The position numbers and the translations under genes were made by a program. Shown in pieces: positions 1,473 through 6,943 of a stretch of DNA of 6,943 nt. The notes below the pieces were generated by a model that was not told the origin of the DNA, did not search any database, and was given only the letters and a program-made list of their open reading frames with translations. Position 1 is the first letter of the stretch. The number at the start of each line of letters is the position of its first letter. The DNA is from a virus (taxonomy: Duplodnaviria; Heunggongvirae; Uroviricota; Caudoviricetes). Location of the stretch: the IMG/VR virus record IMGVR_UViG_2698536628_000001. One strand, 5' to 3'.

Positions 1473-1905
1473 ACCGGACTCCTCCTGCGATCCCTTCTGA
1501 TACTGTCATCAGCATTACGTCATCCTCCGTCATGTCCGCCACATCCGGGGAAGCGGGGATAACTTCATTCCCGTCCGGGCCAAAGCGGACGCCTCCGGCA
1601 AGCCCTGCCGCTTTCTGCATCAGCACATCATCTTCAGGCTCTTCGTCAGCCTCACGCCGGTTCAGCAGACTGAAATCCAGCGGATGCATATCCGGATCGC
1701 TGAAAAACAGGCTGAGCACGGTGTACGTCAGCCCGGAAAAGTGCATATCCAGCAGAACATCATGAAAATAATGGGTACTGTAAAAGCGGTGCCAGTCGGC
1801 ATACTCCGTGGATGACATCCCGGCAAGCATGGCACGCCAGTCGGGTCGCCCCATCTCGCGCGCCAGTTTCAGGGCAAAACTCAGCTCACCGTCGAACACT
1901 TTCCC
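1465..1905 (-). CDS. T: T-frame segment of the tail assembly chaperone fusion gpGT, reached by -1 frameshift from G; no independent start expected
   Basis: Track ORF 1465..1899 (VFDGELSFALKLAREMGRPDWRAMLAGMSS...) matches lambda gpT. It lies in the -1 frame relative to G and begins at the slippery heptamer 1899..1905. Stop TGA is the reverse complement of 1465..1467. Confidence 0.85.
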   Translation of the reverse strand, partial: GKVFDGELSFALKLAREMGRPDWRAMLAGMSSTEYADWHRFYSTHYFHDVLLDMHFSGLTYTVLSLFFSDPDMHPLDFSLLNRREADEEPEDDVLMQKAAGLAGGVRFGPDGNEVIPASPDVADMTEDDVMLMTVSEGIAGGVRYG

Positions 1906-4850: not shown

Positions 4851-5705
4851 TTACGCCAGTTGTACGGACACGAACGCATCAGGGTCAGCCAGCAGCATCA
4901 GCGGTGCTGACTGAATCATGGTGAACTCACGCGCCGGATCGCCGGTGGTCACCCAGTTTTTCGGGTAGCGGGCAGAGGCGTTAATACCTTCGCGCTGTGC
5001 GTCCGCATCCTGAATGCAGCCATAGGTGCGCAGACCGCGTGCCTGAGTGTTCCCCAGCACCATCGTGTTGTCCGGAAGGAAGTTCTTTTTGACGTCGTTT
5101 TCCACGTACTGTCCGGAATACACGACGATCGCCGTATCGCCATACATCCCCTTATAGGACACCGCTTCGCCCAGGTCTTTTACCGCTGTCTCCAGCTCGG
5201 AATGAGAGCCGCGACGGGTATCCAGCTTCTCCCTGACGGCTTTGAAGGAACGGAACAGCGCCCAGCCTTTCGGATCAAACACGATGATATTCACCACACC
5301 GCTGGCGTTCAGCGCGTAGGCTTCGATATCGTCGGTCGGGTCATACGTGGACTTGTCACGCTTGCTCCACTCCGTACCGCCGGACTGCGTGATGTTGTTC
5401 GCCACACTGCGGCCCATATCCACTTCAACCGGATCGAAGGCTTCACCGGTCATGGTGTATTTGCCCTTAAGCACGGCAGAAACTGCCTGCATCTCTTCGA
5501 CCTGAGCAATGGCCAGCTCTTCGTCTCGCATGTTCTGCAGGATGATGCGACGGCGGCGGTAAGCCGGGTCCGCCAGATTCTGTGGATCTTCATCCGGCAG
5601 GCGACGCAGGGTCATCTGCGGATTCACTTCATGCTTGGGTTTGACATATCCCGGCGTAAATTCAGAGGTGGAGCCGCCACGGGAGCGGATAACCTCACCG
5701 GAAAC
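4851..5705 (-). CDS. E: Major capsid protein gpE, C-terminal 284 codons; the 5' end is lost in the N gap (lambda gpE is 341 aa)
   Basis: Track ORF 4851..5627, ...NPQMTLRRLPDEDPQNLADPAYRRRRIILQNMRDEEL...ADPDAFVSVQLA, matches lambda gpE. The frame stays open and keeps matching (KPKHEV) up to the gap at 5705. The track's start at 5627 is an internal GTG (Val). Confidence 0.92.
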   Translation of the reverse strand, partial: VSGEVIRSRGGSTSEFTPGYVKPKHEVNPQMTLRRLPDEDPQNLADPAYRRRRIILQNMRDEELAIAQVEEMQAVSAVLKGKYTMTGEAFDPVEVDMGRSVANNITQSGGTEWSKRDKSTYDPTDDIEAYALNASGVVNIIVFDPKGWALFRSFKAVREKLDTRRGSHSELETAVKDLGEAVSYKGMYGDTAIVVYSGQYVENDVKKNFLPDNTMVLGNTQARGLRTYGCIQDADAQREGINASARYPKNWVTTGDPAREFTMIQSAPLMLLADPDAFVSVQLA

Positions 5706-5750
5706 NNNNNNNNNNNNNNNNNNNNNNNNNNNNNNNNNNNNNNNNNNNNN
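5706..5750. other. Run of 45 N: assembly gap or masked bases
   Basis: Positions 5706..5750 are all n in the supplied sequence. Confidence 0.99.
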
Positions 5751-6061: not shown

Positions 6062-6667
6062 TTACACTGGTGTGTTCAGCAAATCGTTAACGGCATCAGA
6101 TGCCGGGTTACCTGCAGCCAGCGGTGCCGGGGCACCCTGCATCAGACGATCCAGCGCAGTGTCACTGCGCGCCTGTGCACTCTGTGGTGCTGCGGCCAGA
6201 ATGCGGCGGGCCGTTTCCACGGTCATACCGGGGGTTTCTGCCAGCACGCGTGCCTGTTCTTCGCGTCCGTGAGCCTCCTCACAGTTGAGGATCCCCATAA
6301 TGCGGCTGTTTTCTGCCGCAACCGCTGCGGTGATCTGCGCGTTCACGTCCGGCTGCGCCGCGCTGGCGTTTTCGCCCTCCGTCGCTGGCACCACGTCAGT
6401 AACGTCAGCCTGCGAAGCAGTGGCTGAAACAGTTGTTGATTGAGTCTCTTTGGTCATTCGCCCTCCTGAGAGACGGGATTTACGTGCATCCAGTGCATCA
6501 CGCATGACGGTGATCGCATCGGTGCTGTTAACAAGTTCATCAGCCAGTCCGGCATCAATGGCCTCCTGACCGCTGTACACTGCAGCCTCGGTATCCAGCA
6601 CAGCCTGCACGGACAGGCCGGTATATGCCGACACCTTCTGCGCAAACATCTGGCGGGTTGCGTCCAT
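6062..6667 (-). CDS. Nu3: Scaffolding protein Nu3, nested in-frame in the 3' part of C (internal initiation; 201 aa)
   Basis: The in-frame internal ATG (reverse complement of 6665..6667) begins MDATRQMFAQKVSAYTGL... and shares the C stop. This mirrors the lambda arrangement in which Nu3 is the C-terminal 201 codons of C. No strong Shine-Dalgarno is visible, so the call rests on homology and position. Confidence 0.55.
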   Translation of the reverse strand: MDATRQMFAQKVSAYTGLSVQAVLDTEAAVYSGQEAIDAGLADELVNSTDAITVMRDALDARKSRLSGGRMTKETQSTTVSATASQADVTDVVPATEGENASAAQPDVNAQITAAVAAENSRIMGILNCEEAHGREEQARVLAETPGMTVETARRILAAAPQSAQARSDTALDRLMQGAPAPLAAGNPASDAVNDLLNTPV

Positions 6668-6940
6668 CCGGTACTGCAGTGTCTCCCGGACGTCATCCGG
6701 AAGATGGCTGTAGGGGTTGCCATCCACCTTATGGCTGCCGCTGTAAATCAGCGTGATTTCCACACCCTGTTTCTCCAGCGCAGCACCGTAATTACTGTGA
6801 GCCATCATGACGCCGATGGAGCCTGTCCGGGCGGTCTGCGTGACCAGACGCCGGGAGGCGGCACTGGCAAGCAACTGACCTGCACTGCAGTTCATGTCGT
6901 TGGCAAGCGCCCATACCGGTTTTATGTGTAACCGGCTCAT
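6062..6940 (-). CDS. C: Capsid maturation protease/scaffold gpC-like ORF (S49/ClpP-like serine protease family), 292 aa here versus about 439 aa in lambda. It is bounded 5' by an in-frame TAA at the window edge
   Basis: Track ORF 6062..6940, MSRLHIKPVWALANDMNCSAGQLLASAASRRLVTQTARTGSIGVMMAHSNYGAALEKQGVEITLIYSGSHKVDGNPY...AVNDLLNTPV, matches the C-terminal two thirds of lambda gpC from about residue 153. The presumptive catalytic Ser is in NDMNCSAG. Positions 6941..6943 (tta, reverse complement TAA) are an in-frame stop. Confidence 0.88.
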   Translation of the reverse strand: MSRLHIKPVWALANDMNCSAGQLLASAASRRLVTQTARTGSIGVMMAHSNYGAALEKQGVEITLIYSGSHKVDGNPYSHLPDDVRETLQYRMDATRQMFAQKVSAYTGLSVQAVLDTEAAVYSGQEAIDAGLADELVNSTDAITVMRDALDARKSRLSGGRMTKETQSTTVSATASQADVTDVVPATEGENASAAQPDVNAQITAAVAAENSRIMGILNCEEAHGREEQARVLAETPGMTVETARRILAAAPQSAQARSDTALDRLMQGAPAPLAAGNPASDAVNDLLNTPV

Positions 6941-6943
6941 TTA

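Follow-up and report, generated by a model that had tools for sequence, protein, structure and literature searches.

A truncated gene C at the edge of a lambda-like prophage contig almost certainly reflects insertion of an IS66-family element

Lambdoid prophages of enterohemorrhagic E. coli (EHEC) include members inactivated by insertion sequences, as in the "defective prophage pool" of O157 and O26 strains, and prophages of O157 Sakai have been reported to be mobilisable with the help of co-resident prophages. The prophage locus analysed here resembles the IS-inactivated members of this pool in carrying several inactivating lesions. The affected gene, C, encodes the head protease/scaffold protein and is essential in lambda, as its knockdown by CRISPRi reduces the efficiency of plating to < 2e-7 (PMC10695390). 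For insertion sequences of the IS66 family a target duplication of 8 bp has been reported (PMC6778807). ISCro1 was named in Citrobacter rodentium, which holds 24 copies of it (PMC3072379), and for E. coli ST131 the element that precedes afaA has likewise been named ISCro1 and assigned to the IS66 family (PMC8764528).

Measured against lambda, the gene C considered here is alike in its 439 codons (after restoration, see below), its nested Nu3 frame and the downstream genes D, E, FI, FII, Z, U, V, G, T and H; unlike in lambda, an insertion after codon 154 splits it, and the annotation lists two pseudogene fragments. The interrupting element shares with ISCro1-like and IS679-like elements the genes tnpA, tnpB and tnpC, a length of about 2.7 kb, GTAA repeats, the 8-bp duplication and its multicopy occurrence in E. 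coli; the sole difference from ISCro1-like elements is the target, the prophage gene C. As to size, 2,824 bp are given for ISCro1 in PMC8764528, versus 2699 bp here as measured between the duplications. Among the papers listed by a literature search, none has a title or abstract pointing to this insertion in C. The lesion is an ordinary one and is already annotated by RefSeq, as a split pseudogene.

The right edge of the window and the inserted element

The window, i.e., the whole stretch of 6943 nt that was analysed, reads on the minus strand from position 6943 taa atg agc cgg tta cac ata aaa ccg gta tgg and continues with gcg ctt gcc aac gac atg aac tgc agt gca ggt. This start is composed of TAAATGAGCCGGTTAC, ACATAAAA and CCGGTATGG, corresponding to the terminus of an insertion sequence, a target duplication and gene C, respectively (Table 1). 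The last 944 window bases (minus strand) were used as a megablast query against 50,697 phage records and 5,426 complete E. coli genomes. Among the phages, 80 records were matched (lambda and 79 other lambdoid records, including 434, HK629, HK630 and DE3), all of them over query bases 17–944 and with 99.1–99.4% identity. Because the phage alignments begin at query base 17, which is window position 6927, and run downward from there, the stretch 6928–6943 is without a lambda counterpart; over the 3' fragment of C, the DNA identity to lambda C amounts to 99.2% and ends at base 6927. Many E. coli chromosomes among the 5,426 complete genomes match at 100% over bases 1–944, among them O26:H11 str. 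11368, further O26-labelled strains and one O103-labelled strain.

At the break, lambda gpC reads ...ARVRDIKPVW (full stretch IIARVRDIKPVWALANDMNCSAG), and the first residues common to both proteins are I153 and K154; the lambda bases at the corresponding place, GCC CGT GTG CGT G, have no similarity to the TAA/ATG stretch. A preliminary description of this DNA had noted a TAA directly in front of the C-like frame and a breakdown of the similarity to lambda C at this point, had given ...ARVRD for lambda where the window has MSRLH, and had placed the start of the gpC match at about residue 153. These observations are borne out by the minus-strand read from 6943, by the end of the megablast identity at 6927 in all 80 phage matches and by lambda gpC (439 aa) itself, from which the window does diverge at its edge. 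The description was equally correct in that some 150 N-terminal residues are lost from the frame, the break lying after K154, and in that Ser166 (within NDMNCSAG) and the Nu3 frame are kept: Both are present in the translation.

The bases 6928–6943, on the minus strand TAA ATG AGC CGG TTA C, identify the foreign sequence. On the plus strand they form the 16-mer GTAACCGGCTCATTTA, which occurs a single time in the window (0.01 chance matches expected) and is the reverse complement of the final 16 bases of an insertion sequence in O26:H11 11368, with 100% identity (positions 9001–9016 of the reference locus L001, which was taken from NC_013361.1). The window holds just these 16 nt of the element, and everything said below of the remainder is inferred from identical complete genomes.

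Table 1. Features at the right edge of the window and independent copies of the inserted element
Feature	Source	Positions	Strand	Remarks
3' fragment of head protease/scaffold gene C, pseudogene	window	6062..6919	-	codons 155-439 + stop
Hybrid ORF MSRLHIKPVW..., 292 aa	window	6062..6940	-	from mechanical ORF listing
Nested Nu3 scaffold frame, 201 aa	window	6062..6667	-	open, in frame with C, starts MDATRQMF...
IS terminus, first 16 nt, tnpA-proximal	window	6928..6943	+	GTAACCGGCTCATTTA; rest of IS past window edge
Target duplication, right-hand copy	window	6920..6927	-	ACATAAAA; C codons D152 (final two bases), I153, K154
Inverted repeat, 6 nt	window	6916..6935	.	CCGGTT 6916-6921 / AACCGG 6930-6935; one arm in C, other in IS end
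Independent IS copy L012	WCHEC96200			adjoins prophage excisionase (xis) gene
Independent IS copy L013	AH21B060			upstream of afaA
Independent IS copy L014	ATCC 25922			adjoins ISEc49-family element

At the reference locus the element occupies L001 6318–9016 (2699 bp) and is flanked by two duplications at 6310–6317 and 9017–9024, each of which reads ACATAAAA; at the left junction gcccgtgtgcgtgACATAAAA meets GTAAGCGACTCG, and at the right junction GAGCCGGTTAC meets ACATAAAAccggtatggg. The terminal inverted repeats (GTAAGCGACTCGTCAGAACCG and GTAACCGGCTCATTTAAACCG) are imperfect, with 15 of the first 21 positions matching, and begin with GTAA; such ends are reportedly typical of the family, as described for IS679 and IS66. 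The RefSeq gene order at this locus is portal, S49 peptidase (missing C-terminus), IS66 tnpC, tnpB and tnpA, S49 peptidase (missing N-terminus) and D, followed by the major capsid protein, FI, FII, Z, U, V, G, T and the tape measure protein. The genes of the element, which lie on the strand opposite to C, are named IS66-like ISCro1-family transposase, IS66 TnpB and IS66-like TnpA, and all three are intact in L001. Pfam assigns DDE_Tnp_IS66 (2.5e-103), zf-IS66, LZ_Tnp_IS66 and DDE_Tnp_IS66_C to TnpC, and TnpB_IS66 (4.7e-40) and HTH_Tnp_1 (8.6e-15) to the other IS proteins.

The full-length element is found in 1493 of the 5426 complete E. coli genomes, on chromosomes as well as on plasmids and at up to 34 places per genome. 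Three independent copies (Table 1) are 99.8–100% identical to the one in C, have exactly equal termini and are each bordered by their own 8-bp duplication (GTTAGTGT, TATTCAGA and GGCGCATA). Judged by these sequence features, the inserted element is a member of the IS66 family and ISCro1-like, a name that follows RefSeq and PMC8764528. One of the three copies, that in AH21B060 (L013 362–3060, NZ_CP196273.1), shows no difference from the copy in C (100% identity); it lies upstream of afaA and resembles the ISCro1 insertion that was reported as lowering afa transcription in ST131 (PMC8764528).

We are thus left with little doubt that an IS66-family insertion into C with an 8-bp duplication explains the edge of the window. 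In this reading, gene C of a lambda-like prophage received the 2699-bp element, with tnpA, tnpB and tnpC opposite to C, directly after K154, and the 8-bp target ACATAAAA was duplicated in the process. As the window starts 16 nt within the element, its minus strand consists of TAAATGAGCCGGTTAC, one copy of the duplication and C from codon 155 onward, and codons 1–154 would lie on the far side of the IS. Nu3, nested in C, and the head and tail genes further downstream would be left intact.

Prevalence of the junction and the contig edge

The distribution of the lesion was determined with a junction probe of 120 nt, half of it IS and half C (60 nt each), at a coverage of at least 80%. The probe is matched in 113 of the 5426 complete E. 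coli genomes and elsewhere just one of its halves is found; none of the 80 matching phage records contains the junction (0/80), and an exact scan for 42 nt across it gave no hit in collections of viral, genome and metagenome contigs. As the same junction occurs in 113 closed genomes, misassembly is excluded, and the junction is a real heritable lesion of the prophage. Since not only the junctions but also their context are identical, the insertion would most simply represent a single ancestral event, passed on by clonal descent within an O26:H11-type lineage, rather than several separate insertions into one site. The junction may serve as a handy clonal marker for this subset of O26-type strains.

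The preliminary description had also considered an assembly or contig-end artefact, to which a chimeric join or junk bases at the window edge may be added. This reading draws on the facts that the window ends 16 nt past the break, that it contains a gap of 45 N and that the 292-aa ORF is mostly found on contigs of 5–10 kb. It is nonetheless very improbable, because in the closed genomes the full IS stands behind the junction and the 16 nt are an exact IS terminus. What survives of the suggestion concerns the position of the edge and not the junction: Short-read contigs break at multicopy IS, which is probably why the window ends 16 nt into the element.

The gap and the contig sizes are informative about the window itself. 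Among public assemblies, 461 blocks contain precisely this 292-aa ORF, and in 264 of these 461 the longest contig that carries it measures 5–10 kb. The run of 45 N (window 5706–5750) corresponds to 257 bp in O26:H11 11368 (L001 10194–10450), a stretch that runs from the final 31 nt of D across the D–E spacer into E, of which it takes the first 171 nt. Given this difference in length, the run is a scaffold gap and no in-place mask, and the truncated-looking D and E ORFs in the window are gap artefacts. Together, the predominance of 5–10 kb contigs and the 45-N gap suggest a typical short-read contig, in which the 6943-base window would lie between a multicopy IS and a repeated tape measure gene. 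The case illustrates why short-read EHEC prophage contigs stop at such junctions. Window base 1 (L001 16155) is located inside the tail tape measure gene H (L001 14684–17245); the whole window finds 5–9 places per genome, and the H region is repeated among the several lambdoid prophages that these genomes carry, which fits a contig break at a repeat.

The hybrid reading frame and the fragment of C

The 292-aa ORF, whose translation begins MSRLHIKPVWALANDMNCSAG... (product start MSRLHIKPVWALANDMNCSAGQLL), takes its first codons from the element: Both the TAA (6941–6943) and the ATG (6938–6940) are IS sequence, and the codons for S, R and L likewise lie in the IS end. The fifth codon (CAC, H) straddles the boundary, with C being the final IS base and AC the first two bases of the duplication. 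The I and K of MSRLHIK come from the duplicated target, and true C sequence follows from P155 on. "MSRLH" is thus an accidental hybrid N-terminus and no diverged gpC. Further downstream, the position of the Nu3 frame corresponds to that of lambda nu3 (5132–5737).

RefSeq annotates the 3' fragment as "S49 family peptidase, incomplete, missing N-terminus". It matches Pfam Peptidase_S49 with 6.5e-44 and 150 bits (cut-off 24.9) over model positions 6–151 of 154, and residues S166 and K218 are retained. The solved protease domain of SppA (3RST, 4KWB) aligns to gpC residues 81–298: S166 falls on the SppA serine and K218 on an Ala of the 3RST and 4KWB chains, which are K199A mutants. At this locus there is no uninterrupted frame of about 439 codons that would span the whole SppA-type fold, as the IS interrupts it after codon 154. 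Through the cut the fold loses its first third, in which the conserved DTPGG region lies, and because of this loss the 3' fragment is predicted to be no working protease. The 292-aa "S49 peptidase" ORF that gene callers report for hundreds of draft assemblies is a fragment of an IS-disrupted pseudogene and no novel short protease.

Could the ATG provided by the IS nevertheless give rise to a functional, N-terminally truncated gpC'-Nu3 that is made on late transcription of the prophage? Two roles are conceivable for such a product, that of an altered scaffold and that of a dominant-negative protein which poisons procapsid assembly in related superinfecting or co-resident lambdoid phages. The hybrid frame is open over 292 aa, it has kept S166 and K218 and covers the Pfam S49 model almost completely, and the insertion has been preserved unchanged in 113 genomes. 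A scan of the junction and the adjoining 300 bp of the IS, however, yielded no promoter-like site and no terminator, and by eye no Shine–Dalgarno sequence at proper spacing was seen, the nearest GAGGA ending 18 nt upstream of the ATG (L001). With no promoter-like site and the GAGGA 18 nt off, nothing suggests designed expression. Furthermore, the fragment is without the first third of the SppA-type fold, clonal descent accounts for the retention of the insertion, RefSeq lists a pseudogene, and the same prophage has suffered further lesions, namely an IS3-family element that lies upstream of Nu1, separating it from the lysis genes, and a stop codon within K (C40 peptidase). We hence regard production of a functional truncated protein as highly unlikely, and give the altered-scaffold or dominant-negative role just as little credence.

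Excision of the element and the state of the prophage

The remaining alternatives attribute the break to an event other than transposition. In the complete genomes the N-terminal portion of C is found upstream, at L001 5856–6317, where the preliminary description had proposed to look for it. When the IS and one duplicate are removed by joining L001 5856–6317 to 9025–9882, a frame of 1320 nt with one terminal stop is obtained. The restored C has 439 codons and differs from lambda C in 8 of 1320 nt and 4 of 439 aa (S42R, S237Y, V260A and K389E), and the insertion point lies directly after codon K154. Of the four substitutions, S42R is located in the upstream fragment outside the window and the other three within window 6062–6919; V260A and K389E alter Nu3 as well.

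Restoration of the gene upon excision argues for a simple transposition into an intact C and therefore excludes both a mosaic junction and a point nonsense mutation. A mosaic recombination junction, in which the lambda-type 3' half of C is joined to an unrelated phage module, had been put forward in the preliminary description; the high mosaicism of lambdoid prophages and the abrupt stop of the lambda similarity speak for it, but the foreign DNA bears inverted repeats and an 8-bp duplication and is an IS, not a phage module, the lambda-type 5' half of C resumes beyond it and precise excision restores C, which reduces the probability of such a junction to almost nil. An ochre lesion or a naturally split two-gene protease, suggested by the in-frame TAA directly before the ATG, can be dismissed with practically the same confidence, as TAA and ATG belong to invariant IS sequence that is also present at unrelated loci, so that no C codon was mutated, and as none of the 80 matching phage records has such an arrangement. 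The more general notion of a split protease gene was right insofar as C is split, with its 154 N-terminal codons 2.7 kb upstream; the cause, an IS66-family insertion, had not been named.

The short inverted repeat that was reported to flank the breakpoint is present (Table 1) and is no part of the mechanism. We rejected it as a target signal: The flanks of three other insertions of the same IS (L012–L014) contain no comparable repeat, and 6-nt inverted repeats with arms at most 15 nt apart straddle about 3.3% of the window positions. Given this background, its absence from the three other sites and the fact that one of its arms is fixed IS sequence, the repeat is best read as a coincidence.

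Owing to the IS66-family insertion, full-length gpC protease can presumably not be made. For the maturation of its heads the prophage would therefore depend on gpC from a co-resident lambdoid prophage; the complete E. coli genomes that were matched contain 3–5 copies of the C region each. The host prophage (L003, NC_013361.1 608000–657000) is situated beside a tRNA-Arg gene (argU site) downstream of fimZ, presumably at the DLP12 site, and carries intD, quuD, essD, rrrD and rzpD. Taken with the lesions near Nu1 and in K, the prophage is a decaying one; the insertion in C adds one further inactivating lesion to this argU-site prophage and bears on particle formation in the absence of a helper prophage.

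Several minor observations were made on the prophage and its relatives. In L003, an ompC-like porin gene, iss/bor and lom-like genes are present. A variant of the locus (L005 1864–4013, GCA_047262325.1) has kept just the last 885 bp of the IS66-family element (IS 1815–2699); this remnant abuts an IS3-family element, with lysis and bor genes directly upstream. From this layout it follows that Nu1, A, W and B were lost along with the 5' portion of C, apparently via an IS-mediated deletion. Finally, the heptamer GGGAAAG is found at window 1899–1905 (minus strand) at the end of the G ORF (1881–2303), where the T ORF (1465–1899) overlaps, and matches the known slippery site of the lambda G/GT –1 frameshift: A single GGGAAAG is no more than chance gives, and it is its position that makes the site meaningful.
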